From positions 1,860 to 65,859 of the forward strand of contig JAGORG010000002.1 in assembly GCA_018062965.1 (NCBI GenBank): 64,000 nt of DNA, written 5' to 3'. How positions within the stretch are numbered: position 1 is the first letter of the stretch; each line of letters begins with the position of its first letter. Shown in pieces: positions 6,068-39,107 of the stretch. The DNA is from Minisyncoccota bacterium. GTDB lineage: Bacteria > Patescibacteriota > Minisyncoccia > Phycocordibacterales > UBA5272. The notes beneath the pieces are model-generated. The model did not search any database, was not told where the DNA came from, and saw only the letters and a list, made by a program, of their open reading frames with translations. The position numbers and the translations under genes were made by a program.

Positions 6068-6074
6068 ATGACGT

Positions 6075-7774: not shown

Positions 7775-7798
7775 TACCCCTATTTTACCACGTAAGCA

Positions 7799-7822
7799 AA
7801 AACCCCGCCGAAGGCGGGGTTG
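7799..7822. terminator. hairpin aaccccgccgaaggcggggtt
   Basis: Perfect GC stem between the small gene at 7839 and dnaG. Confidence 0.5.
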
Positions 7823-7838
7823 GAGGTTGCTTTTTGGA

Positions 7839-18500: not shown

Positions 18501-19808
18501 TTATCGATGATTTGGTACAAACGTGAGAGCATGACCCAACTTTGTTCCACGTCCTGTACGACCGATACGGTGAACGTATGTTTCGTAGTTATTTGGAATA
18601 TCGTAGTTGACCACAAGAGAGATATCTGAGATATCAAGCCCTCGCGCTGCAACGTCTGTTGCAATCACAACCTGCACACGTCCAGACTCAAGCGACTTCA
18701 CAGCACGCTCACGTTCACGGTTATGCATATCTCCGTGAAGAGCAAGTGCGTTAAACCCACGAGCCTTGAGTTCATCAGCGAGCTTATCAACGTGTCGCTT
18801 CATTTCGCGGAAGATAAGTACTTTTGAATATTCTGGCTTGTTAAGAATCTCATGAAGGGCTTCCAACTTGTCAGCATCGCTAGTTGCACGGATAACATCC
18901 TGCATCACAGACGCAGCTGTATCACGAGTTTTGATAGATACGGTTACTGGATCATTCAAGAAGTCACTCACAAGACGCTTAATCTCTGGAGAAAATGTCG
19001 CAGAGAAGAAAAGTCCTTGCTTTGCCTTTGGCATTGCTCCGAGGATAGAGCGCATATCGTCAATGAATCCCATATCAAGCATACGATCTGCTTCATCAAG
19101 TACGATTGAGTCAAAGTATGACATGTTGATCTTGCCGCGTTCGATAAGATCCTTTACACGTCCTGGAGTTCCGATAACAGCATGAACACCAAGTTCAAGT
19201 TCTTTTATCTGACGCATGATTGGAGCACCACCCACACAAGCAACAGAAAAGAGTTTCATGCCGCGAGTAAAGTTGATGAACTCTGCTTCTACCTGAAGCG
19301 CAAGCTCGCGAGTAGGAGTGAGCACCATGATCTTCTGATCATTGTTTGCTACGAGTTTATTGATAAGTGGAATAAGAAATGCTGCAGTCTTTCCAGTTCC
19401 AGTTGAGGCGATACCTACAACATCTTTACCAGAAAGCGCTACAGGAATAGCTTGGTCCTGAATAGCAGATGGATGGATAAGACCCTTTGCGGTAAGGTTT
19501 GCAGACAATGTTTCAGCAATACCAAAATCCATAAATGAATTTGTTGGTGTATATGTGTCTGTTTCGCTTACTGCGACTTCTTTATTGATAAATAGCTTTT
19601 CATCGATGAAGTCCTTGCGGAAACCCTTCTTTGGATTAAACGGCTTTGCAGCTCCTCCAGAACGAGAACCGAATCGTCCACGTGAAGAACCTCCACGAGA
19701 AAATCCACCTTCGCGACGAGGTGATGAAAATGAGCGGCCACGTGATGGACGATCTGAGAAACGAGAACGTGAGCCAGTATCTGACCCACCAGTTGTAATG
19801 GTGTACAT
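18501..19808 (-). CDS. DEAD-box ATP-dependent RNA helicase with N-terminal RG/RS-rich region
   Basis: Q-motif, Walker A motif GTGKTAAF, DEAD box, SAT and HRIGRTGR. The start is ambiguous: it may extend to 19880. Confidence 0.85.
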   Translation of the reverse strand: MYTITTGGSDTGSRSRFSDRPSRGRSFSSPRREGGFSRGGSSRGRFGSRSGGAAKPFNPKKGFRKDFIDEKLFINKEVAVSETDTYTPTNSFMDFGIAETLSANLTAKGLIHPSAIQDQAIPVALSGKDVVGIASTGTGKTAAFLIPLINKLVANNDQKIMVLTPTRELALQVEAEFINFTRGMKLFSVACVGGAPIMRQIKELELGVHAVIGTPGRVKDLIERGKINMSYFDSIVLDEADRMLDMGFIDDMRSILGAMPKAKQGLFFSATFSPEIKRLVSDFLNDPVTVSIKTRDTAASVMQDVIRATSDADKLEALHEILNKPEYSKVLIFREMKRHVDKLADELKARGFNALALHGDMHNRERERAVKSLESGRVQVVIATDVAARGLDISDISLVVNYDIPNNYETYVHRIGRTGRGTKLGHALTFVPNHR

Positions 19809-20144
19809 AAATGTAGTTTGTATTAAGGTTAATGTGATTATTTGCGCTCGACTTCTTTTCGATGAAGACTCTTCTATCAAGAAAAGATAGATGTATGGTT
19901 ATCGCAACGCGTCACATAAACTGACTACACAAGGATATCCATAAGGAAATAATATGACTATTCTAGCAGATAAGATATGTTTTGTCAATGTTAGGATTTT
20001 TAAAATACATAATACAGATTCTTTTCTTTTTACTTTCCCGTCGAACTAAACGGCATACTTTTTTGCTAAAAAGTTGCCTCCCTCTCAACTCGCCAGTTTC
20101 CGAGAGTTAGTTCTCACGGGAAAGTGGAGTTTGTTACTATACAA

Positions 20145-23606: not shown

Positions 23607-24794
23607 ATGGCTCAATCTTTTTCTCCGAAGAAATACTTTTCAAAAATTTTTGCACACGAACTTGTTTCAGAACTCATAGGAGAGCATGGTGGTCAGGCTT
23701 TTTTTGAGATCAACGACCAAACCCCTCGAAAACTAGCTGTCTCAATGATGGAAGATGCTATAAAGTCACTCGACACAGAACAAAGGCTTGCAGTTACTAA
23801 AGACCTTTCATATATAGCGTCTATCACAAGCGCCCACACATCATCTCTTGGAAAAAAACTATTCTTGACCACAACTGGAAAAGAGTTCGAACCAGAAGTC
23901 GAATGTGCAAGCGACCATGATGTAGTGTTGTACCTGTACCTACGCCACCCGGACATCACAGACAAGCTTGCGTTTTTGTATCCATTTTATGCTTCAAAGA
24001 GTTACATCAGCTATGAAGCTAAAAAAGTTGATCACGTAGAAGTAGACATGAAGCTCACAGAACTTGCTCGGGAGTTTACTCGTTTAGCAAACAAAGACGA
24101 CAATGCTACAGAGCAAGAGATGAATCATATCTTTATCGATGACGTGCTCTATATCGAATCACAGTTCCAAGGAGCATATGACAGATCTGAAAAAATAGAC
24201 CCGAAAACTGGAGAGATAGACAGAAAGCATGTCACTCGCCGTATCGCATCTGTACGTATTGCGTATATTCCCGAAGAAGAAGTTGTCCTTGTTGCTGGGA
24301 CTGTTGGGAAAGAAACGAAAATGCTTTTTATGGATACATTCCTCCGTGTTGTAACTGGAGGTGGGTATGAAGAAAAAATAGAGATGTACGACCTCACACC
24401 ACTTAAAAATCTTTCACTGGATTTTACTCAGTACAACAAGGGTACCCCTTTTATCAAAGCATCTATCAAGTCTGTGACACTAAGCTATGCTGAAGGTAAA
24501 AAGAAGTTGCGACTATCGCTCCCTACATCTCGTGACCAAGCTGGTATGCAAGCACTCAAAGACACTCTAGAGGAGCTAGGACTCACAGATAAGTTCTCTT
24601 CTTTTGAAATTGTGAATATGACATTTGGGTTTATATTCCAAAACAAAGAAAAGCAAGACAAGAGTGTAAACGTAAACTGCTCTATCTCTAAAGCAAAAGC
24701 TTCACTGTGTCCACTTTTTGAATACGAACGGTATACAAAATCTATTCTCAAAAACGCCGGTGTGTACGAAGGGTTTAAGGTGTTAGAAAAATAA
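23607..24794 (+). CDS. hypothetical protein (395 aa), no recognisable domain
   Basis: Long ORF followed by a clean terminator. Confidence 0.6.
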   Translation: MAQSFSPKKYFSKIFAHELVSELIGEHGGQAFFEINDQTPRKLAVSMMEDAIKSLDTEQRLAVTKDLSYIASITSAHTSSLGKKLFLTTTGKEFEPEVECASDHDVVLYLYLRHPDITDKLAFLYPFYASKSYISYEAKKVDHVEVDMKLTELAREFTRLANKDDNATEQEMNHIFIDDVLYIESQFQGAYDRSEKIDPKTGEIDRKHVTRRIASVRIAYIPEEEVVLVAGTVGKETKMLFMDTFLRVVTGGGYEEKIEMYDLTPLKNLSLDFTQYNKGTPFIKASIKSVTLSYAEGKKKLRLSLPTSRDQAGMQALKDTLEELGLTDKFSSFEIVNMTFGFIFQNKEKQDKSVNVNCSISKAKASLCPLFEYERYTKSILKNAGVYEGFKVLEK

Positions 24795-24848: not shown

Positions 24849-24852
24849 TGTG

Positions 24853-24926
24853 CGCAGTCGATGGGATTTGAACCCACGACCCCCGCCGTGACAGGGCGGT
24901 GCTCTAACCAGCTGAGCTACGACTGC
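24853..24926 (-). tRNA. tRNA-Asp (GTC)
   Basis: Cloverleaf read by hand. Anticodon loop CTGTCAC. T-arm GTGGGTTCAAATCCCAT. Confidence 0.8.
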
Positions 24927-24981
24927 ATATTTATTTGTGTCTACACATTCTAGCAGAAAACTAGAATCCGTCTAACACGGG

Positions 24982-25055
24982 TGTCGGCGGGTGGGAACGA
25001 TCCACCGACCTTGGGCTTATGAGTCCCACGCTCTAACCAACTGAGCTACGCCGAC
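24982..25055 (-). tRNA. tRNA-Met/Ile2 family (CAT anticodon) with an atypical T-loop
   Basis: D-arm TAGCTCAGTTGGTTAGAGC. Anticodon loop CTCATAA. The T-loop reads ATCGTTC instead of the usual TTCGAAT. Confidence 0.6.
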
Positions 25056-25089
25056 ATATATTCTTTTAATCTATCACCTCATAAGCCAA

Positions 25090-25141
25090 CTGACTATAGC
25101 GCTTATGTGTGCCCGCGCGTAGCAAACTGAGCTACGCTGAC
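25090..25141 (-). pseudogene. degenerate partial copy of the 5' half of the adjacent tRNA-Met
   Basis: Begins GTCAGCGTAGCTCAGTT and includes a CATAAG loop, but cannot be folded into a cloverleaf. Confidence 0.4.
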
Positions 25142-25152
25142 ATATTTTAACC

Positions 25153-25188
25153 TTTAAGCGCCGCCTCACTACGTGGGCGGCGCTTAAA
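25153..25188. other. strong hairpin aagcgccgcc..ggcggcgctt inside the tRNA cluster
   Basis: 10 bp GC stem. Confidence 0.5.
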
Positions 25189-25216
25189 CCAAAACCTTGT
25201 CACGTAGTTTACTTGT

Positions 25217-25285
25217 TGCGGAGACTGGAATCGAACCAGTGTCCCGAGGTTATGAGCCTCGTGAGTTACCTCTACTCTACTCCGC
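25217..25285 (-). tRNA. tRNA with CAT anticodon (Met or Ile-lysidine type)
   Basis: Anticodon arm CGAGGCTCATAACCTCG. T-arm ACTGGTTCGATTCCAGT. One acceptor-stem mismatch. Confidence 0.65.
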
Positions 25286-25353
25286 TATATTATAGGACAC
25301 ACACTCTTTTTGAGTCAGAATATAATACCACACCATAGAACAAACTACAAGGA

Positions 25354-26730
25354 CTATTTTATCGCCTTCAATTCCCTAAACACCGATTCGTAGAGTGCGT
25401 AGACTCGTTTTGCTTCATGTTCTCCTAGAGAGAAATCTGATCCGTCATGAGCGATACGATTACGAACTTTATGCGCATCCCATGCAAGCTGTATCGTCTT
25501 GAAGCTCGCAGACTGAAGCATTTCTCCAACATCTGCCCCCTGGTATCCTTTTTCAGCCAAAACCTCGCGCAGCATATTATCTGCTTCAAGAATACCGATT
25601 CTCCACAATGGTTCGGCTTGGCTTGTCATATACCCTTGGATGATCGCCCACTTTGGATGATCATTGAAGTCAGCAGCTGTTGGTGCATGGATAGTGAGAC
25701 CTTCACCAATCGGAAGCCCAGCAATACCCGCCGGCATTTCGTCTGTATCTGAATGATGTGGTGCATGTCCACCGTGATGGCGGTCATCTCCATGACCAAA
25801 GTGATGTTCATAATGTTCAAGCGCATTTGAAAACTCCAAGAACCAGCGAATGATGACGTATACCAAAAAGATGAGCCCGAGCACCGCGACAAGCGACAAG
25901 ACATCTGACATAAATGAAAGCACAGGATTGTGAATTGCTGTTTGTGCCCCATTAAGCTGCCCAGACAGATCAAAAGCTCCGTTGCTGTTATTGTTTATAT
26001 CAAGCGGATATGTATCCATATTATCTGGAATACCATCACCGTCTGTATCTTTCATGCGAGGGTTCGTACCAAGTGTAGCCTCCATCATATCACTAACCCC
26101 ATCCCCGTCTGTATCTAATCCTCGTGAAGAAATGCCTGCATCAAGTGGCGCCTCATCTCGTCCGTCTAGAACTAAATCTCTATCTGAGTCGTTGTTAAGA
26201 GGGTTAGTGCCACGAGCAAGCTCAACACCATCAGATAAGCCATCTCTGTCAGTATCTCTATGTTTAGGATCCATGCCATGAGTGATTTCATAACTGTCTG
26301 GAACACCATCTCCATCACTATCTTTTGGACCTACACCAAAAAGATCTCGTACCTTATCCCAAAAGGAATAGTCAACTTCGTATCGCTCTTTGAGCTCTGC
26401 CTGAGTCAAGTTATACGGATCATACGGCTGACCGTCAGCGACATTTGGTATACCATCTCCATCACTATCAGGAGACTGTATTCCCAAGCTTTCAAGTATA
26501 CGCTGCCACAATGTCAGACTTGTATCAGCTGCAGGGACAACAGCATCTTTTTGTGCAAAGTACGCATCAAACCAACCTCGATCTCGTAGACCATCAAATT
26601 CTCTCTCTGCATGCTTTGCTATATAGTCGTCTGGATTTGTACGAAGAATACCAAAAAGCCATACATACTTTATCCAAAGAAGTACGTCATAGACTCTATT
26701 AAAAAGATAGTCGATGGAAAGCGAGTACAT
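25354..26730 (-). CDS. membrane protein with TSP3-like Asp-rich calcium-binding repeats, His-rich linker and DUF4145/HEPN-like C-terminal domain
   Basis: Six DxDxDG-type repeats (DSDGDGIPNVAD and similar). Transmembrane helix VLSLVAVLGLIFLVYVII. HHFGHGDDRHHGGHAPHH segment. C-terminal ...AHKVRNRIAHDG, resembling the DUF4145 R-x-N-x-x-A-H motif. Confidence 0.65.
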   Translation of the reverse strand: MYSLSIDYLFNRVYDVLLWIKYVWLFGILRTNPDDYIAKHAEREFDGLRDRGWFDAYFAQKDAVVPAADTSLTLWQRILESLGIQSPDSDGDGIPNVADGQPYDPYNLTQAELKERYEVDYSFWDKVRDLFGVGPKDSDGDGVPDSYEITHGMDPKHRDTDRDGLSDGVELARGTNPLNNDSDRDLVLDGRDEAPLDAGISSRGLDTDGDGVSDMMEATLGTNPRMKDTDGDGIPDNMDTYPLDINNNSNGAFDLSGQLNGAQTAIHNPVLSFMSDVLSLVAVLGLIFLVYVIIRWFLEFSNALEHYEHHFGHGDDRHHGGHAPHHSDTDEMPAGIAGLPIGEGLTIHAPTAADFNDHPKWAIIQGYMTSQAEPLWRIGILEADNMLREVLAEKGYQGADVGEMLQSASFKTIQLAWDAHKVRNRIAHDGSDFSLGEHEAKRVYALYESVFRELKAIK

Positions 26731-26739: not shown

Positions 26740-28161
26740 TTAGTATACCTTTTCAAAATCTCGTCCGATAGTGAATAGTGCACCTTCGTGAAAATGTGGA
26801 GCAATAAGTTGAAGTGAAAGAGGTAGACCGCTCTCTGTTTTACCTGACGGGATAGAGATAGCTGGAACACCAACAATGTTTACCGGCACCGTAAAGATAT
26901 CTGCCAAATACATGGCGAGTGGGTCGCTTGATTTTTCACCTATCGCAAATGCAGGGATTGGAGATGTCGGGAGGGCGATAGCGTCAACATCTTTAAACAC
27001 CTGAGCAAATTCTTCTTGGAGCATTTCTCGAACGAGATTGGCTTTATTGTAATACGCATCATAATACCCTGATGAAAGCACATAGGTGCCAAGCAATACA
27101 CGGCGGCGAACCTCATCTCCTAGCCCGTCAGTTCGTGTCTTGAAGTATCCACTAATCATACTGTTTGCTTTATCTTCATCTTTTAGAGACAACCCATATC
27201 GGATACCATCATAGCGCGCCATGTTTGAAGAGATTTCTGCAAACACAACAACATAATATACAGAAAGTGACTTTTCTAGATGCTCTATATTCACGTCAAC
27301 AATTTCATACCCATCTGTCTTTAACTTCTCAAGTGATGCTTCAAAGTTTTTCAAAACCTCTGCATCGATTCCTTCACGTCGAACAAATGACCATGGCACA
27401 CCGATTTTCTTTTTGAGATCTGCATGAGTTGTTTTGATCCCTAGATCTACAGAGGTACCATCAAGAGCATCTTTTCCTTTGATGATATCAAACACGGCTT
27501 CCACGTCGTCTATGGTATTTCCAAATGGACCAATCTGATCCAATGATGAACCCATCGCCATGAGACCATAACGTGACACTGCACCATATGTAGGCTTGAG
27601 CCCTACGATGCCACAAAATGATGCCGGCTGACGAATTGAACCACCAGTATCTGACCCGAGCGAAATAGGAACACCACCGTATGCAACAACAGCAGCAGAC
27701 CCGCCAGATGAACCACCAGCTACACGAGTTGTGTCATGAGGGTTTTTGGTAACACCAAAAGCTGAATTCTCTGTTGAACCCCCCATGGCGAATTCATCCA
27801 TGTTTGCACGTGCAAGTAAAATCGCTCCAGCATCTTTTAGTTTTTGTACAACAGTTGCATCATATGGAGAGGTATACTTAGCGAGAATCTTTGATGCAGC
27901 AGTAGCACGCTCGCCTTCTACGACAATGTTATCTTTAAGAACAATCGGTACTCCGGTGAGTAGAGTTCCAGTTCCTGATGCAAGCATACTTTTTGCTCGC
28001 GCAATCTGAGACTCGATCAGATCATCTGAATACATACCTAAAATTGCATGTATCTCTTCGTCTTTTTCGCTGATAGTCGCATGAGCTTCTTCAACAAGCG
28101 CTTCCACCGTTAGAGAACCGTTTTTAAAATCTTCCTGAATTTCTTTGAGAGTTTTTTTCAT
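26740..28161 (-). CDS. gatA: Glu-tRNA(Gln) amidotransferase subunit A
   Basis: Amidase signature GGSSGGSAAVVA and a Ser-cisSer-Lys triad context. Confidence 0.9.
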   Translation of the reverse strand: MKKTLKEIQEDFKNGSLTVEALVEEAHATISEKDEEIHAILGMYSDDLIESQIARAKSMLASGTGTLLTGVPIVLKDNIVVEGERATAASKILAKYTSPYDATVVQKLKDAGAILLARANMDEFAMGGSTENSAFGVTKNPHDTTRVAGGSSGGSAAVVAYGGVPISLGSDTGGSIRQPASFCGIVGLKPTYGAVSRYGLMAMGSSLDQIGPFGNTIDDVEAVFDIIKGKDALDGTSVDLGIKTTHADLKKKIGVPWSFVRREGIDAEVLKNFEASLEKLKTDGYEIVDVNIEHLEKSLSVYYVVVFAEISSNMARYDGIRYGLSLKDEDKANSMISGYFKTRTDGLGDEVRRRVLLGTYVLSSGYYDAYYNKANLVREMLQEEFAQVFKDVDAIALPTSPIPAFAIGEKSSDPLAMYLADIFTVPVNIVGVPAISIPSGKTESGLPLSLQLIAPHFHEGALFTIGRDFEKVY

Positions 28162-28164: not shown

Positions 28165-28449
28165 TTATTTCAGCACTTGTGCAACTTTTACATATCCATC
28201 TTCTGTGTCCGGAGCTTCATTTAATATCGCTTCTGTATTTGAGCCAGTTTCGTGAGTAATGATGTCTTCTCGAACAATATTATAGTGCTCGCCTTTAGTG
28301 CGAACAACATCTCCAGAAACCTCATTGATTTCTGAAATATAACCCAAAATAGCCTGCATATCGGCAAGCATTTTATCCTCTTCTTCAGGTGTTACCGATA
28401 TACGAGACAAGGACGCAATATTTGCAAGATCTTCTTTGGTAAATGACAT
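28165..28449 (-). CDS. gatC: Asp/Glu-tRNA amidotransferase subunit C
   Basis: 94 aa, immediately upstream of gatA. GatC-like acidic C-terminal half. Confidence 0.75.
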   Translation of the reverse strand: MSFTKEDLANIASLSRISVTPEEEDKMLADMQAILGYISEINEVSGDVVRTKGEHYNIVREDIITHETGSNTEAILNEAPDTEDGYVKVAQVLK

Positions 28450-28457: not shown

Positions 28458-30455
28458 TTATACCATATGCAATAACTCTTCTTCGCTTACGATTTTTACC
28501 CCAAATTTTTCTGCATCTGTTCGCTTACCACCCCCACCTTCTCCTGCTAAAAGGTAACTTGTTGCCTTAGAAACACTGGCTGTTACTTTGCCACCATGTT
28601 CTTCGATGAGTGCTTTTGCATCATCACGTGAAAGTGTTGGAAGTGTTCCAGTGATAACAAATGACAGACCTGCGAGCTTGCCACCTTGTATTTTCTTTTC
28701 TTCACTCACGGTAATTTCTTTCAAAAGTTCACCGAGCACCTTTTGATTTGTTGTATCTTTAAAATACTCAACTACTGACTGTGCAACTTTTTCTCCAACA
28801 CCTTCTACCGCCAATAACTCTTCGTATGTTGCATGTCTAATAGCTTCAAATGTCCCCATATGCTTTGCAATGTCTTTTGCTGTTGTTTCTCCAACATGAC
28901 GAATACCAAGTGAATACAAAAATCTACCCAAGGGTACATTTCTTGCAGTTTCGATAGAAGCGATAATATTCTCTGCACTCTTTTCACCGAATCCTTCTAA
29001 TCCTTCAATATCTTCTTTACGAAGTTTAAAAATAGATGCTTGGTTTGTAATAAGTCCAAGCTCGCGAAACTCTTCAATAATCCTATCCCCCAACCCTTCT
29101 ATGTTCATGCCTTTTTTGGAAACAAAGTGAATGAGTCCTTCAAGGTGTTTTGCAGGGCATTCTCCATTCTTGCAGTACCATGCAGCAGATACCTCTTTGC
29201 CTACACTTTCTTTTACAAGTGTTGACCCGCACTCCGGACACTCTGTTGGCATGATAAATTTCTTCGCAGCTTTTGGACGAAGGTCTGTGAACACGTCAAA
29301 TATTTCTGGTATCACATCCCCTGCTTTTCGAAGTGCAACAGTGTCCCCAATACGCACATCCAATCGCTCTATTTCTTCTTCGTTATGAAGTGTTGCACGC
29401 GCAACCACAGAACCCGCAAGAAGTACCGGCTCAAGCTCAGCTACAGGAGTGATGGCTCCGGTACGTCCAACCTGACAAGTAACAGAAAGTAATTTGGTTG
29501 CAACCTCTGCTGCAGGAAACTTATACGCAATACCCCCTCGTGGAGACTTTGCTGTGTAGCCAAGCTTGTCCCATAGTTTTCTTTCATTTACTTTTACAAC
29601 GAGTCCATCAATACCATAGTCTTGATTATCTCGTTTTTCTTTCCAAGCATCATAAAAAGACTGAACCTCTTTCAAATTTCTACAAACTCTACGATCTTTA
29701 TTCACCAAAAAACCAAAAGCACTCAACGCTCGCAACTCTTCTTCTTGCGAAGCATACACACCACCTTCAATATCGTATGCAAATATCTGAATATTTCTCT
29801 GTACAACAATACGTGGATCAAGTTGACGAAGTGTTCCAGCTGCTAGGTTACGAGTGTTTGCATAAAGAGGCAAACCATCCCGTGTACGATCTTTGTTTAT
29901 CTTTTCGAGGTCTTTCTTTTTCATCCACGCTTCACCAATGATGGTTATAGAAACTGGCCGCGACAAAAGAAGTGGTATAGAACGCACTGTTTTTATATTT
30001 TCTGTTATATCTTCACCAACTTCTCCATCACCTCGAGTAGCAGCACAAATGAGGCGTCCTTCTTTGTACGTCAAAATAACTTTGAGTCCATCTATTTTCA
30101 TTTCAGCAACATAGGTTGGTGGCGTTGTTATCTTTGCTTTATGGAGAAGCGTCAGATTTCTTTCTTCCCAAGAAGTTAAATCTTCATATGAAAAAGCATT
30201 ATCAAAACTCCACTGCTTGATATCGTGACGCACTTTTACAAACTTTGAAAGTGGTGTACCACCAACACGATGAGTTGGCGACAAAGGAGAGTCAAACTCT
30301 GGAAACTCTTGTTCAAGAGCATGTAGCTGCAACATCAAAGAGTCGTACAGTTCGTCGCTTATTTCTGGTGTATCGTGCACATGATACAGTACGCGATGTT
30401 TCTCTAGAAGCTCGCGTAATTCATGTATTTTTTTCTGTGCCTGCACTTTACTCAT
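28458..30455 (-). CDS. ligA: NAD-dependent DNA ligase
   Basis: Adenylation motif KIDGL and the zinc-finger CPECGS...C. The size fits an OB, HhH and C-terminal BRCT arrangement. Start at MSKVQAQ. Confidence 0.9.
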   Translation of the reverse strand: MSKVQAQKKIHELRELLEKHRVLYHVHDTPEISDELYDSLMLQLHALEQEFPEFDSPLSPTHRVGGTPLSKFVKVRHDIKQWSFDNAFSYEDLTSWEERNLTLLHKAKITTPPTYVAEMKIDGLKVILTYKEGRLICAATRGDGEVGEDITENIKTVRSIPLLLSRPVSITIIGEAWMKKKDLEKINKDRTRDGLPLYANTRNLAAGTLRQLDPRIVVQRNIQIFAYDIEGGVYASQEEELRALSAFGFLVNKDRRVCRNLKEVQSFYDAWKEKRDNQDYGIDGLVVKVNERKLWDKLGYTAKSPRGGIAYKFPAAEVATKLLSVTCQVGRTGAITPVAELEPVLLAGSVVARATLHNEEEIERLDVRIGDTVALRKAGDVIPEIFDVFTDLRPKAAKKFIMPTECPECGSTLVKESVGKEVSAAWYCKNGECPAKHLEGLIHFVSKKGMNIEGLGDRIIEEFRELGLITNQASIFKLRKEDIEGLEGFGEKSAENIIASIETARNVPLGRFLYSLGIRHVGETTAKDIAKHMGTFEAIRHATYEELLAVEGVGEKVAQSVVEYFKDTTNQKVLGELLKEITVSEEKKIQGGKLAGLSFVITGTLPTLSRDDAKALIEEHGGKVTASVSKATSYLLAGEGGGGKRTDAEKFGVKIVSEEELLHMV

Positions 30456-30503
30456 ATATATCAAGTATAGCAAAAACAGGCCTATTTTTAAAGGGAAAAT
30501 CCG

Positions 30504-31118
30504 TTATTGAATTTCTGATGTACTGACAACTGCACGCTCTATGAGGGAGTTACTTGATAGGTTGCAGGTATTGAAACCTCGAGCGATAATCTGTCGCCAC
30601 GTGCCAGATTTGTTTACGGAAACACGAGCACATCGCTGCTTGCCATCCCCTGCATCAATCGTCATATAAAACGTAGAGAGTTTGGTATTTTCAGTTGTTC
30701 CAGATGAAGTAATACGAGTACTATCGGTAGTATTGAAGTCTGTAACAGATGTATCAAAGACAGGAGATGTCGCACATCGTATTTGATTAATATTTATTTG
30801 AGGCAACCCACGCTGTGTGCGCACATCGTTAACAGAAGCAAGGGTGGTGGTAGTACTCACTGTTGGTGTTGGGAAAATTCCCGTACCAGAAGCTTGGTCT
30901 ATGTAACCATCGTCTATAAATGATGCACACTCAAGTGCAGTATCTGCTGCATAATACGCAAGTTGACTTTCGCGACTTAGCTGTGAGAAAAATATTTCCT
31001 TTGCAAGGATAGTAGTAATACCAACAGACACTGTAAGGATAATAGCAGACAAAAGCATTGCCATTGGCAAAATAAATCCTTTACGCATACTATGTGTTGT
31101 GTACATGTTCTGTTTCAT
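30504..31118 (-). CDS. putative minor pilin or pseudopilin (hydrophobic N-terminal helix, no clear GFTLIE motif)
   Basis: N-terminus RKGFILPMAMLLSAIILTV. Sits in the pilin gene row. Confidence 0.45.
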   Translation of the reverse strand: MKQNMYTTHSMRKGFILPMAMLLSAIILTVSVGITTILAKEIFFSQLSRESQLAYYAADTALECASFIDDGYIDQASGTGIFPTPTVSTTTTLASVNDVRTQRGLPQININQIRCATSPVFDTSVTDFNTTDSTRITSSGTTENTKLSTFYMTIDAGDGKQRCARVSVNKSGTWRQIIARGFNTCNLSSNSLIERAVVSTSEIQ

Positions 31119-31121
31119 AGA

Positions 31122-31844
31122 TTATGGGCGAGAGTGTAGGTAGTCTACAACTTTCATCGTTCGTTTAATACCATTTGAACGTACATAGGTCACCGCAGAC
31201 TCAATACGAAGATCATCTTCATAGTTTTGATCATAGAATGGGTCGCCAATCTCAGACAACGAGTAGAGTTTTATTGTTCGACTAAATGTTGTATCAGCAA
31301 ATCCTGGACCGTTTGCCTTGCACAAATACATGTAGTCAGTTACCCCATTTTCACTTCCATCCCCTCTGTCTTTTGAATCGTCTCGAACAAGGTGATCACA
31401 GAGTGGGTCAGATGCAACATAACGCTCACCTGCATCGCTTCCTGTTTTAGTGAATCCATAAATGTCATACGAACAACCCTCTGGGGTATCAGCTGCAAAG
31501 CATGATGCGAGTGAGTTATAGGGACCCATTCGTTCTTTAAAAATACGCCATGCGGACTCTTTCACGTTTTCATATACACCTGCGGTTATCATTTCTGATT
31601 CACATGTTACGAGTCCGTTCAGACATTCCAAAAATATACTATCTCGCTTGAAACGCAAAAGCTCTAAACCTTCCTGAGCAAGATACACAGAGATAATAGT
31701 GTCTTTGGTATTTTTTGCATATGCAGATGAAGAAATAGCGACCGAAAGAGGCCCGAGAATAACAAGCATGATGATTGTTGTTGATATCAGTGTCTCGATA
31801 AGCGTGAATCCTTTTTGGTTGTGTTTACGGAATATGTTTTTCAT
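31122..31844 (-). CDS. type IV minor pilin (prepilin N-terminal methylation motif)
   Basis: N-terminus KGFTLIETLISTTIIMLV. Confidence 0.7.
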   Translation of the reverse strand: MKNIFRKHNQKGFTLIETLISTTIIMLVILGPLSVAISSSAYAKNTKDTIISVYLAQEGLELLRFKRDSIFLECLNGLVTCESEMITAGVYENVKESAWRIFKERMGPYNSLASCFAADTPEGCSYDIYGFTKTGSDAGERYVASDPLCDHLVRDDSKDRGDGSENGVTDYMYLCKANGPGFADTTFSRTIKLYSLSEIGDPFYDQNYEDDLRIESAVTYVRSNGIKRTMKVVDYLHSRP

Positions 31845-31850
31845 ACAATA

Positions 31851-32507
31851 CTAATTGTCGAGACTTCTCGTTGTTGCTGTTGATTGCACACGGAACTTCA
31901 CTTGTTGTGCTTTTCCTGTTGCTACCGTTGTCCCCCCAATCACAATAGTGATGATCGGTTGAGTTGAATCAGTGTCTCCACCAACATCATTTAATCCTCC
32001 GGTTGAGGTATGGGCACCACTCACAAAAAATGAAAGTGTGTCGACCACCACATCGCTTCCTGTTATCTGAAGCGGTGTTCCCCATGTACATGTCGAACCT
32101 GCTGCAACACAGACATTTTTATAAATAGACCCTTCTTCTATGTAGTACGCTTCACGGTCATACGGACTAACACTTCGTGCAGACCTAAAAACAAGTGCTT
32201 TTCCAGGAACACTAAGTGGTGCAAGGTTAAGCGGGCAACTTTTACGTTTCTCAAAATCTGTTTCGTTGTATGTTTGCCCGCAATGAAATACAGCACCATA
32301 ACGAATATCTCGAACTATAGATTCTAGACTTAAATTGATACCATCAAGAATAATATGAGTCTGTTGAAGTCTTGTGTTCACGTTTTGCGCAGAAAAAAGG
32401 GCCCCCGTTGCAATGATAACCACCACAGAAAAAATAGACGAAGCAACGAGTAACTCAACGAGAGTAAACCCGCGCATGCTTCGTTGTGAAAAGGTGGAAA
32501 ATATCAT
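31851..32507 (-). CDS. type IV minor pilin
   Basis: N-terminus RGFTLVELLVASSIF. Confidence 0.7.
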   Translation of the reverse strand: MIFSTFSQRSMRGFTLVELLVASSIFSVVVIIATGALFSAQNVNTRLQQTHIILDGINLSLESIVRDIRYGAVFHCGQTYNETDFEKRKSCPLNLAPLSVPGKALVFRSARSVSPYDREAYYIEEGSIYKNVCVAAGSTCTWGTPLQITGSDVVVDTLSFFVSGAHTSTGGLNDVGGDTDSTQPIITIVIGGTTVATGKAQQVKFRVQSTATTRSLDN

Positions 32508-32510
32508 ACG

Positions 32511-33167
32511 TTATTGGCAACCAAGCTGAGATGTTGTTATTCTGCCAGAAGCAAATACATGTACCGAGCGTACATGTCCTGACCCACCTCCACGCGGAGA
32601 CACTATTTCGATACATGCAGCACTGTACGTGGTTGAGGTTAGTCGATTAATATATATTTTTGGCTCTGGGTTAGGTCGAATAAAAGAAAGCGTTATGTTT
32701 TCGATTGCAGGCACAGCACCTTGTGTCACAGCATTACATGATGTAAACGGAAACCCTGTTCCTACACATAGTTTAGTAATTCTGAAATTCTTAAGAAGAT
32801 TTGTTATCGATTCTGTCTCGTCAAATGGAGTCACATCATAGAGGCCATTACCGAGCTGAATTCCATTGAGCACACTTCCATTTGCGAGATCTGCATACAG
32901 ATAAAAACGTGTAGGCTCAATCGTATCAAAATACATACCATACCCTCCAACGGTACTACTAGCAGAGTCTATAGCACTACCTCTAACTTGTGCTTCTCGC
33001 ACAGACAATGCTAACGAATGAGAAATATTTGCAAGGTTGATACGTGTAGCAGAGTCAGGATAATCAGCGAGCACAACAGACGTCAAAATACCCATAATAA
33101 GCATACTCATGAGAAGTTCTATCGTGGTAAAACCACGTCTAGAGGAAGTACGAGAAAGCTTATACAT
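32511..33167 (-). CDS. type IV minor pilin
   Basis: N-terminus RGFTTIELLMSMLIMGIL. Confidence 0.65.
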   Translation of the reverse strand: MYKLSRTSSRRGFTTIELLMSMLIMGILTSVVLADYPDSATRINLANISHSLALSVREAQVRGSAIDSASSTVGGYGMYFDTIEPTRFYLYADLANGSVLNGIQLGNGLYDVTPFDETESITNLLKNFRITKLCVGTGFPFTSCNAVTQGAVPAIENITLSFIRPNPEPKIYINRLTSTTYSAACIEIVSPRGGGSGHVRSVHVFASGRITTSQLGCQ

Positions 33168-33179
33168 ATCCTTATGGTA

Positions 33180-33959
33180 TCAGGAATGCAGCAAGCTTAC
33201 GATAGAGAAGATATCAATATCTGTGAATAGTACTATAACAAAGACACATGCAATAAAAGGAATAAATGGAATTCCAGATGTCAGTGAATACTTTTTACGT
33301 TGTGCGATGTGCAAAACTCCCCCAACAAGAGCACCCAACCAAACAGATAACAGTAACACTGCTAGACCTTGTGCTACCCCAAAAAACGCTCCGACTGCAA
33401 CATACATGAGCACGTCTCCAAACCCAAGAGCTTTACCGCGAGTTATCAGGTAGATCAAAAAAAATGGAAGGGCTGTGGCGACAGGTCCAAGGATTGTATC
33501 AGGAGATACATCGTGAAGTAACTTCATTCCCATCATGATGGAACATAGTGTAAGGAATACTCCAAAGAACGAGAGTGGAATATATGTATGCTTGAAATCA
33601 TACAGCGCCATCACACCAAGAGAAACAAACAAGAGCGAATAATACGCCAACCATCCGATAGACACAACCCCAATAGGCAATCCAGAAAGCACCATACTAT
33701 ACACAAGCACAAACACCGCTCCGTAGAGAATCTCTACAATGAGATTCTCTACGCCGAAGCGGTGTTTACATGATCTGCATCTCCCCCGAAGAACAAGATA
33801 GGAAACAACAGGGATGAGATCAAACCAGTTTATTTTTTCTCCACACGACAAGCATTTACTTCTTCCGTTTAGGATAGGTGCAATATGTAGTCTCTGTACA
33901 ATAACATTTACAAAGCTACCAAGCGCAGCACCATAGAAAAACGAAAGGAAGTAAACCAC
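33180..33959 (-). CDS. pilD: prepilin peptidase (A24 family)
   Basis: N-terminal tetracysteine C-X-X-C...C-X-X-C (CLSCGEKI...CRSC). Polytopic membrane domain. Confidence 0.8.
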   Translation of the reverse strand: MVYFLSFFYGAALGSFVNVIVQRLHIAPILNGRSKCLSCGEKINWFDLIPVVSYLVLRGRCRSCKHRFGVENLIVEILYGAVFVLVYSMVLSGLPIGVVSIGWLAYYSLLFVSLGVMALYDFKHTYIPLSFFGVFLTLCSIMMGMKLLHDVSPDTILGPVATALPFFLIYLITRGKALGFGDVLMYVAVGAFFGVAQGLAVLLLSVWLGALVGGVLHIAQRKKYSLTSGIPFIPFIACVFVIVLFTDIDIFSIVSLLHS

Positions 33960-33979
33960 AATAGAAACTAGTCAGGAGC

Positions 33980-34594
33980 TTATTGCTGCCCTGTTACGTC
34001 AAAGATACAATCAGTAACAGCAGTACATGTTGTTGTTCCAACGTCTGCTCCTGTAAAGTCAGCGTTAATTGCAGTACCAATCATCCCCGCTACCCATGTC
34101 GGATATGAAAACGTAGCAGCAACTGCTGTGTTAAACGATCCACATGCAGGAGGTGTAATAGATGTACCGAGAGTGATGCCTGTACAGTCCCGGTCTGTGT
34201 CGAGCGCTGGTCCGAACGTTTCAAGGTGAGCGCCAAGGTGGTACCCAAAACGTTGAGCAACACCACCCGTAGGAGTACCTGAATACACAACATACGCAAA
34301 ACGATCACGAAAAGGAACACCTGTACCAGCATATGTTGGAAGAACGGGCATATATCCACCTGTGGTAAGTGTTGCAAGGTCTACAGGATATTCACCGTTT
34401 GCTTCAGCGTACTGCTCAAGACCAAGTTGTACGGCTTTCATTTCAGCAACCTTCTTAGCATCACGAGCTTTCTTACGAGCGTTCTGAATAGGTGCGGCGA
34501 TAACCGTTGAAAGAAGTCCAATAATAGCGATAACCACAAGAAGTTCGATGAGTGTAAACCCTCGAACTTTTGATGAGAAAAATGTGTGTGACAT
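33980..34594 (-). CDS. pilA: type IV major pilin
   Basis: N-terminus RGFTLIELLVVIAIIGLL followed by a globular domain. Confidence 0.75.
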   Translation of the reverse strand: MSHTFFSSKVRGFTLIELLVVIAIIGLLSTVIAAPIQNARKKARDAKKVAEMKAVQLGLEQYAEANGEYPVDLATLTTGGYMPVLPTYAGTGVPFRDRFAYVVYSGTPTGGVAQRFGYHLGAHLETFGPALDTDRDCTGITLGTSITPPACGSFNTAVAATFSYPTWVAGMIGTAINADFTGADVGTTTCTAVTDCIFDVTGQQ

Positions 34595-34717
34595 GAAAAA
34601 AAACTAATTTGTAATTCTATCTTGTTAATAGATGTATCAAGTATACGTCTAAATACAACTAAGGTGCAAGACATTTACCTTGTATATGTGGATAGAACCT
34701 TATACTTTTCTGTATTT

Positions 34718-35929
34718 TTAAGCAATAGAAGAAGAAAGTGAGTACATCGGGAGAAGTACTGACGCAACCAATACACCCACCCCTAGACCCAATCCAACGA
34801 TCATGGCTGGCTCAATGAGACCTATCACGTTGTCGATTGCAGTATCTACTTCACGTTTGTAGAACGTCGCGAGGTTTTTCAAAATATATCCAAGCTCACC
34901 TGTTTCTTCACCAATACGCACCATTTGAATAAGAATATTTGGGATGGATTCTTCTTCATACAAAGCTTTTGAAAAAGCTGTACCATTTTGAACTTTGTTA
35001 GAAACACGGAGCAGCAGTTCACGATAATAGAGGTTATCTACGACTTCTGCTGTGATTTCAATTGAACGCACAATAGGCACACCGGAGGTGAGCATCGTGT
35101 TCATATTATCTGCAAGACGTGCCAAGAAAATCTTTTGATACAGGTTTTTAATAACAGGGATTTTGAGTTTCCACGCATCGATTTTGTAGCCACCTTCTGG
35201 AGTTTTTGAGTATCGGTATAAGAACCACCCACCCGCAACAATAAGCGGTAGCAAATAAAGTCCGTAGTTAAGAAAGAAATCAGAAATGCCGAGAACTATA
35301 CGAGTAACAAGCGGTAGCTCTGCACCCTGTTCTGCAAACATCGCCGACATTTTAGGAATAATAAACACGAACATCACAATCATGATGATGATAAACGTCG
35401 CAATAACGAAGATTGGATATGTGAGCGCCTTTTTTGTTTTTTGACGGAGCTCGTACTCTCGGTCAAGATAATCTGCTAGATATAGAAACGTTTGGTTGAG
35501 CTTTCCACTTTCCTCTCCAGATCTAACCATGTTTACATAAAATGATGTAAAGAGGTTTGGTTGTTTCTCAAGAGCATTCGATAGCGATGTTCCTCGTTCT
35601 ATGTCGTCAGATACAATGGTGAGCTGTTCTTTAAGTGTTGGGTTGTCATTTTCAACAGCAAGCAATCGAAATGCTTTAAGCGCAGACACTCCAGCCTCAA
35701 AAAGCGTTGCAATCTGGCGTGAAAAAATAACAATATCTTTTTGTTCTACTTTTTTCTTGAACGCAAAGTGAAGCGACCCAACTTCAATGTCACCTTTCTT
35801 TTCATCTAGACGCACAACAGTAAGCCCACGTTTTTGAAGATCGGCTACCGCAGTGTCAAAATTCAGGCTATCAATGTTGCCTTCTAGCTTTGTTCCGTCT
35901 TGAGATACGCAAATGTAGTGGAAAATCAT
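34718..35929 (-). CDS. pilC: type IV pilus assembly platform protein (GspF/PilC family)
   Basis: Duplicated GspF-type domain pattern with three transmembrane segments. Confidence 0.8.
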   Translation of the reverse strand: MIFHYICVSQDGTKLEGNIDSLNFDTAVADLQKRGLTVVRLDEKKGDIEVGSLHFAFKKKVEQKDIVIFSRQIATLFEAGVSALKAFRLLAVENDNPTLKEQLTIVSDDIERGTSLSNALEKQPNLFTSFYVNMVRSGEESGKLNQTFLYLADYLDREYELRQKTKKALTYPIFVIATFIIIMIVMFVFIIPKMSAMFAEQGAELPLVTRIVLGISDFFLNYGLYLLPLIVAGGWFLYRYSKTPEGGYKIDAWKLKIPVIKNLYQKIFLARLADNMNTMLTSGVPIVRSIEITAEVVDNLYYRELLLRVSNKVQNGTAFSKALYEEESIPNILIQMVRIGEETGELGYILKNLATFYKREVDTAIDNVIGLIEPAMIVGLGLGVGVLVASVLLPMYSLSSSIA

Positions 35930-35932
35930 AGA

Positions 35933-36991
35933 TTAGATAAGACGCTCAAATATTGTTTGCTTGTGGGCGTACTGATGGGCAACGTCCTTCAGTACATCAC
36001 CTCGACGTACAAGTTCTGCTAGATATCTATCCAAGTCAATCATTCCTTCGTTTGTTCCAGTTTCGATAAGAACGTCAATTTCTTGTGTGCGACCTTCGCG
36101 AATCAAGTTTGAAACAGCAGGAGTATTGATAAGAAGTTCGTATGCCGGAATCATCCCACCAGAAACTCGAGGAATAAGTCGCTGTGAAAAAATACCAATG
36201 AGCGATGATGCGAGCTGTGTACGAATTTGTCCCTGCTGATCTCCTGGGAAAGAATCGATGATGCGATCAACTGTTTGCGCAGCACTATTTGTATGAAGCG
36301 TAGAGAGCACAAGGTGCCCTGTTTCGGCTGCTGTTACGGCTGCAGAAATAGTTTCTTTGTCACGCATCTCTCCAATCATGATCACGTCCATATCTTGACG
36401 AAAGGCATGACGTAGCGCTGTAGCAAAGTCTTTTGTGTCGATACCCACCTCACGCTGCTCGATGAGCGATTTGTCTTGTTCAAAGCGAAATTCAATTGGA
36501 TCTTCGATGGTTACAATGTGACGCTTTGATTCTTGATTAATCAAAGATATCATTGCGGCAATCGTGGTAGATTTTCCTTGTCCAACAGGACCAACAACCA
36601 AAAAGAAACCTTGTTTTCTTCGTGAAAACTCTACAAGCTGTTCAGGTAAATTGAGTTCTTGTATTGAGCGAGCTTTTGGAACAAGACGAAGCGCAATAGA
36701 AACAACCCCTCGCTGAAATGACGCATTTCCACGTAGACGATATTCTTTGCCATGCTCATATGAAAAATCGAGTTCTTGCTTTACAACAAAATCAGTAAAC
36801 AGTTTTTCACCTACCATTGCACGCAAAAACCCAACAGTATCTTGTGCAGTTAATTCTTGTTTTCGAGTAAGCGGAATCAACTCACCGTTGATACGCAATG
36901 TCGGGAATGTCCCTACCGTAAAGTGAATATCTGAACCGCCTTCTTTTACGAGAGTAAGTATCAAATCGTTAAGCTCAGAGTCATAGTTCAT
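35933..36991 (-). CDS. pilT: twitching motility / pilus retraction ATPase
   Basis: Walker A motif GPVGQGKST, Asp box, His box. About 350 aa, the PilT size. Confidence 0.8.
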   Translation of the reverse strand: MNYDSELNDLILTLVKEGGSDIHFTVGTFPTLRINGELIPLTRKQELTAQDTVGFLRAMVGEKLFTDFVVKQELDFSYEHGKEYRLRGNASFQRGVVSIALRLVPKARSIQELNLPEQLVEFSRRKQGFFLVVGPVGQGKSTTIAAMISLINQESKRHIVTIEDPIEFRFEQDKSLIEQREVGIDTKDFATALRHAFRQDMDVIMIGEMRDKETISAAVTAAETGHLVLSTLHTNSAAQTVDRIIDSFPGDQQGQIRTQLASSLIGIFSQRLIPRVSGGMIPAYELLINTPAVSNLIREGRTQEIDVLIETGTNEGMIDLDRYLAELVRRGDVLKDVAHQYAHKQTIFERLI

Positions 36992-37018
36992 AGTTTCAGT
37001 ATATAGTAGTTTTTGGTA

Positions 37019-38791
37019 TTACAACTCATTTATTTCCACAAATGGAATTTTTCCATTGATTGACTTGATTATCGCATCTTCTTTCATCGTCATATAACCC
37101 TTTGCTCGTGCAAGTTTCCACATTTCTTCTTCACCCTTACTGTGCAAAACTGCTTCTTGGATTTCATCATCAAACGTGAGCACTTCAAAAACTGGAATAC
37201 GCCCCTTGAGTCCCGTAGCGCTGTCTGCGCTTGCTTTTGCTTCTGAAAGAGGTTTATCAAGTGGTAGTTCTTTTCTGAACTCTTCAGGTAAATCTGCGAA
37301 CTGCCCTTCTATCATCGCTGTTAATCCTGGTGTCATTTCAAGAGGAGACGCACACCCTTCGGCTATTGAGCGAGATAGACGTTGTCCGATTGCCATGTTG
37401 AGTGTCGGAGCAATCAAATATGGTTCGATTCCCATGTCCAATAGTCGAGTAACCACTCCGATAGCAGTGTTGGTGTGAATCGTAGAAAACACCAAGTGCC
37501 CTGTGAGCGCTGCTTGAATAGCAAGGCCTGCGGTTTCAGCGTCTCGTATTTCTCCCACCATGATTACATCCGGGTCCTGACGGAGAATGGAACGAAGTCC
37601 GGAAGCAAACGTATAGCCGATTTCTGGAAACACTTGAGACTGGTTCATACTTGGTACGTTGTATTCGATAGGATCTTCGAGAGATACTACATTTCTGTGT
37701 TCACGGTCGATTTCGTTTAGCATCGCATAGAGTGTCGTTGTTTTACCAGAACCTGTAGGACCTGAGATGAGAATAATTCCGTACGGCTCAGCAAGCGCTT
37801 CACGAACAGCAGCCATTTGTCTCTCAGAAAAACCAAGTGTATCGACTGGACGCACACCTTTGTAACTATCAAGAATACGGATTACCACTTTTTCTCCGTA
37901 ATATCCTGGGAACGTCGAAACACGGTAGTCAACACTGTGATCACCAACTCGAGTACTAAAACGTCCGTCTTGTGGTTTTCTTTTTTCATCAAGCTTCATA
38001 CTACAAAGAATTTTTACACGAGCAATGAGCATTGGATGTAGGTTTGGCGGAAGCGACGTCACTGTGTTGAGGATGCCGTCCACACGACAACGTGCACGAA
38101 CTGATGTTCCTATGTGTTCTATATGAATATCTGATGCTTCATGGTCAATCGCATATCGCAAAATAGTACTAAAGATTTGAGGAATGGTTAGTTTTGTGAG
38201 CTCTTGATCAAGATTAGAGTCGATGTCAGTCAAATCAACCAGCTCATCTTCACCTTCTTCTTTGTCTGCGTCTCCTTCTTGTTTCTTTTTCTTTGGAGCG
38301 TTCACTGCATCTTCTTTAGAGACGTATTTCAAATCACTTGTATCTGTCTGATACACCAAGCTAGTCTGAGTTTCGGAAGTGATACCAAAATACTTTTTAA
38401 ATGCATCATAACTAATGAGATAAATTTTGTATGCCTGATGATCTGGACCAAATAAAAACTGAAGGCTATCGAGCACTTGCGCATGGTCAGGGTCAACAAC
38501 CCCCACAGAAAGAACTCCTTCTTTCAAAGCTAGAGGAACTGAAAGTAGCTGTCGTGACTGAACTTTTGAAATGTATTTTGAAAGCGTAGGATCTACGACG
38601 ACAGGATCTTTGTATACCGGCAAACCATACAAAACAGAGCGAACCTGAAGAATATCTTCGCTTGTAATTTTTTTCCCCGCGAGAAGATCATCCACGATTA
38701 CTCCTTCGTGGTCTTGTACATCCTGCTCGATTTCTTTTGCTTCGAGCTCAGTTATTTTGTTTTGGCTAACGAATAGGTCGAGAAGAAGCAT
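37019..38791 (-). CDS. pilB: type IV pilus assembly ATPase (GspE/PilB family)
   Basis: Walker A motif GPTGSGKTTT, tetracysteine-less GspE core, N-terminal GSPII-like domain. Start uncertain. Confidence 0.8.
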   Translation of the reverse strand: MLLLDLFVSQNKITELEAKEIEQDVQDHEGVIVDDLLAGKKITSEDILQVRSVLYGLPVYKDPVVVDPTLSKYISKVQSRQLLSVPLALKEGVLSVGVVDPDHAQVLDSLQFLFGPDHQAYKIYLISYDAFKKYFGITSETQTSLVYQTDTSDLKYVSKEDAVNAPKKKKQEGDADKEEGEDELVDLTDIDSNLDQELTKLTIPQIFSTILRYAIDHEASDIHIEHIGTSVRARCRVDGILNTVTSLPPNLHPMLIARVKILCSMKLDEKRKPQDGRFSTRVGDHSVDYRVSTFPGYYGEKVVIRILDSYKGVRPVDTLGFSERQMAAVREALAEPYGIILISGPTGSGKTTTLYAMLNEIDREHRNVVSLEDPIEYNVPSMNQSQVFPEIGYTFASGLRSILRQDPDVIMVGEIRDAETAGLAIQAALTGHLVFSTIHTNTAIGVVTRLLDMGIEPYLIAPTLNMAIGQRLSRSIAEGCASPLEMTPGLTAMIEGQFADLPEEFRKELPLDKPLSEAKASADSATGLKGRIPVFEVLTFDDEIQEAVLHSKGEEEMWKLARAKGYMTMKEDAIIKSINGKIPFVEINEL

Positions 38792-39107
38792 ATGGCAAGA
38801 ATGGGTCAGCACGTCCGCGAGCAGACGTTTCTCCGATTACTTCACTAAAATCTTGCATATTCCTTACAAGTTGACTGTCCAAAAATGTAGTGTTACTAAT
38901 ATTTACTTTGTCCTGATTAACCGCTTGCAAGAAGATAACAAAGTTTTGCCCGAGGAGCTGTTGATTGATAGCACCTTCTGTTGTAGATGTTGTTTCTGTA
39001 TTTGTAAGCAACGATACCCCATAATACCCAATAACAAGTAGCGCTACCGCAACAGCAATTTCAGTTATCAGCATCTTATGTTGTGTGAAAAATGATGGAG
39101 CTTGCAT
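38766..39107 (-). CDS. small hypothetical protein in the pilus operon (113 aa, N-terminal TM)
   Basis: Operon context only. Confidence 0.4.
   Translation of the reverse strand: MQAPSFFTQHKMLITEIAVAVALLVIGYYGVSLLTNTETTSTTEGAINQQLLGQNFVIFLQAVNQDKVNISNTTFLDSQLVRNMQDFSEVIGETSARGRADPFLPYASSRPIR

Follow-up and report, generated by a model that had tools for sequence, protein, structure and literature searches.

Within a 64,000-nucleotide stretch of the genome of a Minisyncoccota bacterium (contig JAGORG010000002.1, positions 1,860 to 65,859; hereafter the window), a gene designated X was found whose product is most likely a membrane-tethered, metal-independent endoribonuclease. X is the local ortholog, one lineage's version, of a family of membrane-anchored HEPN proteins that extends across the Parcubacteria. 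The role of the family was judged more likely to lie in core RNA metabolism than in defence, and this reading as a whole is held with confidence slightly better than even. Core RNA metabolism was considered likelier because of the near-universal, single-locus, operonic conservation of the gene with translation and tRNA genes. Feature coordinates are collected in Table 1; those of the X features were confirmed by translation.

The HEPN superfamily was taken as Pfam clan CL0291 in the definition of Anantharaman et al. 2013 (PMC3710099), which includes an acidic residue conserved in helix-2, an insert that separates helix-2 from helix-3, and an Rx4-6H motif ending helix-3. The C-terminal 105 residues of X are predicted to be a HEPN four-helix bundle that is nearest to the DUF4145-like group and belongs to a family not modelled by Pfam. 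This assignment was made because the order of the helices, the insert, the helix-2 acidic residue and the position of the Rx4H motif match the above definition. The AlphaFold2 (AF2) model of the domain is confident (predicted local distance difference test, pLDDT, 90.8) and contains helices at positions 13-22, 27-47, 67-86 and 91-107 in domain numbering, with the insert at 55-61. In this model, E382 and D384 are located in the second helix, which is followed by the short insert helix, and R423 and H428 are located at the C-terminal end of the helix formed by residues 412-431. The C-terminal region of the protein includes AHKVRNRIAHDG. R423, N424 and H428 are present in each of 20 full-length homologs, and the R, N and H are also invariant in alignment A3. 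In the wider family, R-[NHDQS]-x3-H was found at a constant distance from the C-terminus in all 150 representatives listed.

As for the profile searches, the family consensus (the hidden Markov model consensus of 149 domain sequences) had its best Pfam match with DUF4145 (PF13643; E = 9.5e-4, 19.6 bits vs. a cutoff of 23.1, profile positions 11-88 of 88). Among 40 diverse members, the sub-threshold Pfam matches were HEPN_Swt1 (24), HEPN_RiboL-PSP (12), pEK499_p136 (7) and DUF4145 (5; best E = 7.7e-4). The best match to HEPN_Swt1 was that of the homolog P0221 (E = 3e-4, profile positions 6-108 of 115), and Hypoth_Ymh and HEPN_Cthe2314 were further sub-threshold matches in family members. A search of NCBIfam with the family consensus indicated a weak match to the HEPN region of Cas13e (E = 0.0099). 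When the isolated tail or the whole of X was used, no Pfam, NCBIfam, PADLOC or PDB sequence match was obtained for the C-terminal domain, a weak match to CTD11 being the only one. The structures listed for this domain, with their listed values, were 2hsb (AF0298, 9.8), 1wwp (TTHA0636, 9.2), 6nlt (C-terminal domain of kanamycin nucleotidyltransferase, KNTase, 8.9), 8xdj (HEPN toxin, 8.8), 8y7f (Csx1, 8.5), 5yep (HEPN toxin, 8.4), 3o10 (sacsin HEPN, 8.0) and 6tug (Csm6, 7.9).

An exhaustive profile search of 1.84 billion representatives returned at least 2,195 family clusters, defined at 50% identity, at E ≤ 1e-3, and 1,061 at E ≤ 1e-10. Nearly all of the 150 representatives listed have one or two transmembrane (TM) helices ahead of the domain, and most are 185-250 aa long. 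The TM-HEPN core and the operon position are constant in the family, and the external region is variable: the segment before the last TM helix consists of almost nothing, of six TSP3 repeats (the clade of X), of SH3_3 domains (placed between the two TM helices in P0182 and P0230) or of other inserts. The motif LN[LI][DE]Y[LI]F[NY], which corresponds to SIDYLFN at the N-terminus of X, is present in 30 of the 150 representatives (0.4 expected), and in the long forms it is followed by an invariant DGLRDRGW. The best 80 reference-genome matches all belong to Patescibacteria-type metagenome-assembled genomes (MAGs). The members of the family are labelled Candidatus Paceibacterota, Nomurabacteria, Kaiserbacteria, Zambryskibacteria, Parcubacteria, Moraniibacteriota and "Patescibacteria group"; the label of one submitter series, "uncultured Candidatus Saccharibacteria", was treated with caution. 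Among the matches listed, which comprised 120 full-length homologs, P0001 is 99% identical to X, and the other full-length sequences show 60-66% identity. All 120 share the MYSLSIDY start, so the start codon assigned to X was considered sound.

Ahead of the HEPN domain, X contains one strong hydrophobic segment at approximately residues 276-298, in addition to a weak N-terminal helix. The segment after the main TM helix reads HYEHHFGHGDDRHHGGHAPHH, and the His-rich stretch of the linker is HHFGHGDDRHHGGHAPHH, with nine histidines within residues 306-345. At least six histidines within 30 residues of the linker were found in 18 of the 150 representatives. His-rich linkers between the last TM helix and the HEPN domain are also present in the TSP3-less short forms P0201, P0206, P0227, P0244 and P0159; they are therefore a recurrent feature of the linker, independent of the ectodomain. 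Averaged over 140 representatives, lysines and arginines number 3.0 in the 15 residues that follow the last TM helix, vs. 0.86 before it; the charge bias favours the HEPN-inside orientation in 114 proteins and the reverse in 10. The excess after the last TM helix indicates that the HEPN side is cytoplasmic. In the short forms with two TM helices and in the SH3 forms, the variable region sits between these helices and would therefore be outside the cell. Residues 61-265 of X are very acidic (44 D/E vs. 16 K/R). The favoured topology of X, predicted from these sequence properties, has the TSP3 repeats outside and the HEPN domain inside.

The putative ectodomain contains six DxDxD[G/L] motifs, found with a motif regular expression at residues 88, 137, 159, 181, 206 and 228. 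Pfam TSP3_bac (PF18884) matches X in four stretches with 62.2 bits (cutoff 25, E = 3.9e-17), which is far beyond chance, and it is the sole above-threshold Pfam domain in the protein. The NCBIfam models of the TSP3-repeat proteins CglD and MtsD gave weak partial matches to the repeats (50 bits vs. cutoffs of 400-800). The N-terminal helix is highly conserved and, at residues 13-31, weakly hydrophobic; AF2 renders the segment as a 23-residue helix. The homologous helices of P0137 (Kyte-Doolittle 2.29) and P0143 (1.96) are clearly hydrophobic. In X, the helix is a candidate for a weak first TM helix or signal-anchor, or for a juxtamembrane helix outside the cell.

An earlier note on this DNA had described six TSP3-like repeats, a single TM helix, a His-rich stretch and an Rx4-6H-type C-terminal motif, and all of these elements were recovered in the present analysis, together with the N-terminal helix, which was absent from that note. 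Its layout of repeats outside, TM helix and HEPN domain inside is plausible in view of the family-wide charge bias and the placement of the TM helices. The assignment of a HEPN/DUF4145 domain was supported: the domain is HEPN-like with DUF4145 as the nearest Pfam family, and the score of the family consensus is below the gathering threshold of the latter. The claim of a novel architecture stood in part. The architecture is undescribed; the library searched contained no paper linking HEPN with TSP3 repeats or describing this HEPN family of the Candidate Phyla Radiation (CPR), and searches for HEPN with Patescibacteria or CPR, and for RNase Y/E in Patescibacteria, returned nothing relevant. On the other side, more than 1,600 homologs of X are present in the databases, annotated as "hypothetical protein", and membrane-associated HEPN sensors were predicted as a class, with Ire1-like logic, in 2013 (PMC3710099, section 15); the X family falls within this class.

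X ends the string ligA-gatC-gatA-X, and this gene order recurs in independent assemblies. In 79 of 80 GTDB species-representative loci, which are the best of at least 576 matches, gatA is located upstream of X on the same strand. Across the 80 loci, the identity of GatA to that of the window goes down to 38-50%, X mostly follows gatA after 8-150 bp, and the downstream genes vary. The short form P0262 and the SH3 forms share the gatA-adjacent position and are therefore positional orthologs of X. In the locus L079, the only one among 88 with gatB between gatA and the TM-HEPN gene, the order is gatA-gatB-X, which indicates that X is an addition to the gatCAB operon and not a substitute for gatB. 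The replacement of gatB by X was rejected on account of this locus and of the intact gatB of the window, which is located on the other strand, approximately 24 kb away from gatC-gatA. The single exception of the 80, L022 (1..6306), has four divergently oriented ORFs upstream of X instead of gatA, and its X starts with MSKESYLASV... and is devoid of the SIDYLFN motif; such a pattern is suggestive of an insertion or rearrangement at the locus. One of the upstream ORFs may, as a guess from its N-terminal sequence, encode a DNA methyltransferase. Two contigs of one MAG (MDV bin70), L050 and L065, each contain gatA followed by a gene for a 220-aa short form; the locus may be duplicated, or the bin may be heterogeneous in its strains.

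On the other side of X, a cluster of tRNA genes (24852..25286, minus strand) begins 68 bp downstream on the same strand. The earlier note had placed X beside a tRNA cluster, and its members are tRNA-Met, tRNA-Met and tRNA-Asp, all on the minus strand; the Rfam search around the operon detected these three tRNAs only. No terminator-like site was found between X and the tRNA genes. A promoter-like site with 10 of 12 matches is located there at 25318-25289, in a promoter scan that overall was not above shuffle expectation. A tRNA gene was found within 1 kb downstream of X homologs in 45 of 70 loci, and in 39 of these it is tRNA-Met; clusters of tRNA-Met/Met/Asp recur downstream of X homologs on either strand. 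The sequence of the 72-nt tRNA-Met after X (AGCGGAG...CTCCGCAAC, with an A1/A72 mismatch atop the acceptor stem) suggests an initiator tRNA. In many loci, X is followed downstream by the same 72-nt tRNA-Met, whose anticodon is at position 33.

[quoted passage not shown] The acidic TSP3 module outside the cell would bind Ca2+ and/or a surface ligand and may modulate oligomerisation across the membrane in a way analogous to Ire1, and the His-rich cytoplasmic linker may bind a divalent metal. Candidate roles are the processing or turnover of tRNA, rRNA or mRNA, possibly gated by a stimulus. Given the operon and the tRNA neighbourhood, tRNA or translation-related RNA is an attractive guess for the substrate. 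A more specific form of this proposal makes X a core Parcubacteria-specific membrane RNase coupled to tRNA metabolism or GatCAB, which would cleave or process tRNAs or translation-related RNAs at the membrane on an outside signal (Ca2+, host or surface contact), as a housekeeping counterpart of Ire1 in bacteria and a possible stand-in for RNase Y/E in genomes of reduced size. It is offered tentatively, as a rather improbable extension.

Several observations weigh against the endoribonuclease reading. No HEPN-type Pfam model was matched at its curated cutoff, and X alone matches none of them (DUF4145 gave no match at E ≤ 10). A Foldseek comparison of the domain with the PDB gave a best E of 0.62, which is not significant, with 1wty and 2hsb among the best matches, and neither the domain nor the family profile had more than chance-level matches in sequence searches of the PDB. 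As for the topology, the N-terminal helix of X is weakly hydrophobic, a classical signal peptide is absent, and the export of a 245-aa acidic segment is what we infer from this helix and its clearly hydrophobic counterparts in some relatives; the full-length AF2 model of X is poor (pLDDT 62.5), too poor for topology or domain packing. The set of 80 loci is biased to closer relatives, and the gene order may be conserved for co-expression alone, with no functional coupling to GatCAB. The strict operon linkage to gatCA would also fit a non-catalytic HEPN domain, namely, a ligand-, tRNA- or protein-binding module that serves as a tether or regulator of GatCAB or the transamidosome, as a nucleotide binder like the KNTase and sacsin HEPN domains, or as a membrane scaffold or signal transducer, and the fact that a partner gene controlling toxicity was undetected is in line with this. 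In such families, however, the Rx4-6H motif is typically lost (Table 1 of PMC3710099), whereas the very diverse family of X keeps R, N, H and the helix-2 acidic residue without exception; a non-catalytic function was therefore regarded as rather unlikely.

The repeats and the surroundings of X raise a different question, that is, whether the protein is a cell-surface Ca2+-binding adhesin or envelope protein which functions outside and for which the C-terminal bundle is a mere anchor. TSP3 repeats are known from proteins involved in gliding and cohesion (CglD and MtsD, for instance), these two gave the partial NCBIfam matches, TSP3_bac is the only domain above threshold, and a type IV pilus cluster is located upstream. 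The TSP3 module is nevertheless dispensable, as positional orthologs of 185-245 aa have no TSP3 and others carry SH3_3, and the conserved part is the TM-HEPN core; this explanation was judged improbable. A still lower probability, that of a very unlikely explanation, was given to the proposal of the earlier note that X is a sensor-effector of a defence or stress system, in which a membrane sensor would release the HEPN RNase when phages attack or stress occurs, as in abortive infection (Abi), toxin-antitoxin and CRISPR-accessory HEPN systems. Most characterised prokaryotic HEPN and DUF4145 proteins are indeed nucleases of conflict systems (PMC3710099), the catalytic motif of X is intact, and CTD11 (ABC-3C), to which the weak match was found, is a conflict-system domain. 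Against this, the PADLOC models gave no match to X, and the domain was not found in any of 50,697 phage and 72,556 plasmid records, with one marginal partial match in IMG/VR. No antitoxin, MNT, restriction-modification or Cas gene adjoins X, and the neighbourhood of the homologs is marked by the housekeeping gene gatA and is not a defence context, the position after gatCA being fixed in 79 of the 80 loci. The above cross-species identity of the full-length proteins is untypical of fast-evolving defence genes, and the GC content of X (0.447) is close to that of the window (0.422). The profile of X is that of a core gene, not of a defence-island gene.

The endoribonuclease reading was further compared with known systems. 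The DUF4145-like HEPN proteins (PF13643) have the same fold and an R-N-x3-H type motif like that of the X family, and the fusions listed for them, "TM and SH3 (Firmicutes)" (PMC3710099), parallel the SH3_3 variants of the family. They differ in sequence, since the X family is divergent and scores below the gathering threshold, and in context: DUF4145 is typically fused to, or shares an operon with, restriction-modification, helicase, TerD/McrBC or Abi modules, whereas X is found in the context ligA-gatC-gatA-X-tRNA. The single-TM group of Vibrio has a WP-signature TM helix (PMC3710099); the X family is without this signature and has its own LNLDYLFN and DGLRDRGW motifs. Swt1/Abi2-type HEPN (PF18731, HEPN_Swt1) is the most frequent sub-threshold Pfam match in the family, with all matches below the 27.5-bit cutoff. 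A Salmonella-type, TM-anchored and catalytically active subgroup was described for it (PMC3710099); this subgroup has a conserved N-terminal globular domain that is all-alpha, instead of which the X family has TSP3 repeats or a TM hairpin.

The logic proposed for X, that is, an external or lumenal sensor, a single TM helix and a cytoplasmic HEPN RNase, is that of the membrane-associated HEPN RNases of eukaryotes, Ire1 / RNase L (KEN domain) and C6orf70; this is an analogy only, with homology at the superfamily level at most. The KEN domain of Ire1 and RNase L is circularly permuted, whereas the HEPN domain of X is canonical, is not accompanied by a kinase domain and is combined with a putative TSP3 sensor. 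RNases Y and E are membrane-tethered endoribonucleases that initiate decay, and X resembles them in the tethering and as a conserved core-like gene; the likeness is a functional analogy only, as their folds (HD/KH; S1/DNase I-like) are unrelated to HEPN. The TSP3 surface proteins (PF18884; CglD, MtsD) share with X the DxDxDGxxD type of repeat, and only the repeats match: X is devoid of a lipoprotein signal or a VWA-type domain and has the cytoplasmic HEPN domain.

To our knowledge, prokaryotic HEPN nucleases are known almost only as toxins of conflict systems, and a conserved HEPN protein with a fixed place in an operon with gatCA(B) and tRNA genes, throughout a large radiation of bacteria with reduced genomes, would be a rare case of a bacterial HEPN enzyme with a housekeeping role. 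With an external module that differs between members (none, TSP3 or SH3) and a TM-HEPN core that does not, the 2013 prediction of RNA cleavage in response to surface stimuli would become directly testable. In addition, thousands of "hypothetical proteins" of Patescibacteria gain a name and a hypothesis, and alignment A3 provides the profile that is missing from Pfam.

Table 1. Coordinates, strand and basis of the features of X and of neighbouring genes in the 64,000-nucleotide window (KD, Kyte-Doolittle hydropathy).
Feature	Position	Strand	Basis or remark
X (TSP3-repeat / TM / His-rich linker / predicted HEPN), whole ORF	25354..26730	-	ATG start, 458 aa
Conserved N-terminal motif helix, aa 3-31, SLSIDYLFNRVYDVLLWIKYVWLFGILRT	26638..26724	-	KD 1.17; AF2 helix 6-28
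DGLRDRGWF motif, aa 46-54, invariant; common to non-TSP3 long forms	26569..26595	-	
Six TSP3-type Ca-binding repeats, aa 88-241, predicted outside cell	26008..26469	-	Pfam TSP3_bac, motif regular expression
Main TM helix, aa 276-298	25837..25905	-	KD up to 2.74; AF2 helix 269-311, pLDDT 74-87
Juxtamembrane L-x-HYEHHF (conserved), then variable His-rich disordered linker, aa 304-345, predicted cytoplasmic	25696..25821	-	pLDDT ~30
Predicted HEPN domain, DUF4145-like, aa 352-456	25363..25677	-	AF2 model, motif layout
E382-A383-D384, conserved acidic position, HEPN helix-2	25579..25587	-	Invariant in alignment A1; D384 also in A3
R423-N-R-I-A-H428 (Rx4H HEPN motif), end of helix-3	25447..25464	-	
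gatA, operon partner directly upstream of X	26740..28161	-	9-bp gap to X ATG
gatC	28165..28449	-	
ligA, usual first gene of the ligA-gatC-gatA-X string	28458..30473	-	
tRNA-Met (72 nt)	25215..25286	-	
tRNA-Met	24979..25056	-	
tRNA-Asp	24852..24926	-	
gatB	1418..2830	+	GatB_N (E = 1.5e-107) and GatB_Yqey; intact
PilB-like ATPase	37019..38812	-	
PilT-like	35933..36991	-	
PilC/T2SSF	34718..35929	-	
Prepilin peptidase	33180..33959	-	
dnaG	6158..7918	-	
rpoD-like sigma-70	4691..6094	-	
DEAD-box helicase	18501..19880		

As for the rest of the window, the presence of dnaG, an rpoD-like sigma-70 gene and a DEAD-box helicase gene indicates that it is housekeeping in character. The type IV pilus cluster (30504..38812, minus strand) is complete, is located directly upstream of ligA and also includes four N_methyl pilin-like genes; pilin genes flank the gatCA-X string in the loci L003, L004 and L088 as well. 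An ORF of 395 aa (23607..24794, plus strand) has no Pfam match; most TSP3-form loci keep it nearby, with 33-74% identity and mostly on the opposite strand.

A large serine recombinase ORF (51702..53213; Resolvase, Recombinase and Zn_ribbon_recom domains) was identified within the region 51702..53582. On the opposite strand, this ORF is overlapped by a predicted tRNA-Ser (53199..53288, minus strand) whose anticodon, ACT, is unusual, and a normal tRNA-Ser(GCT) is located 200 bp away. Duplication of an attachment site as the origin of the two tRNA-Ser genes was rejected, as they are distinct genes. The recombinase region may be an integrated element with its own tRNA.

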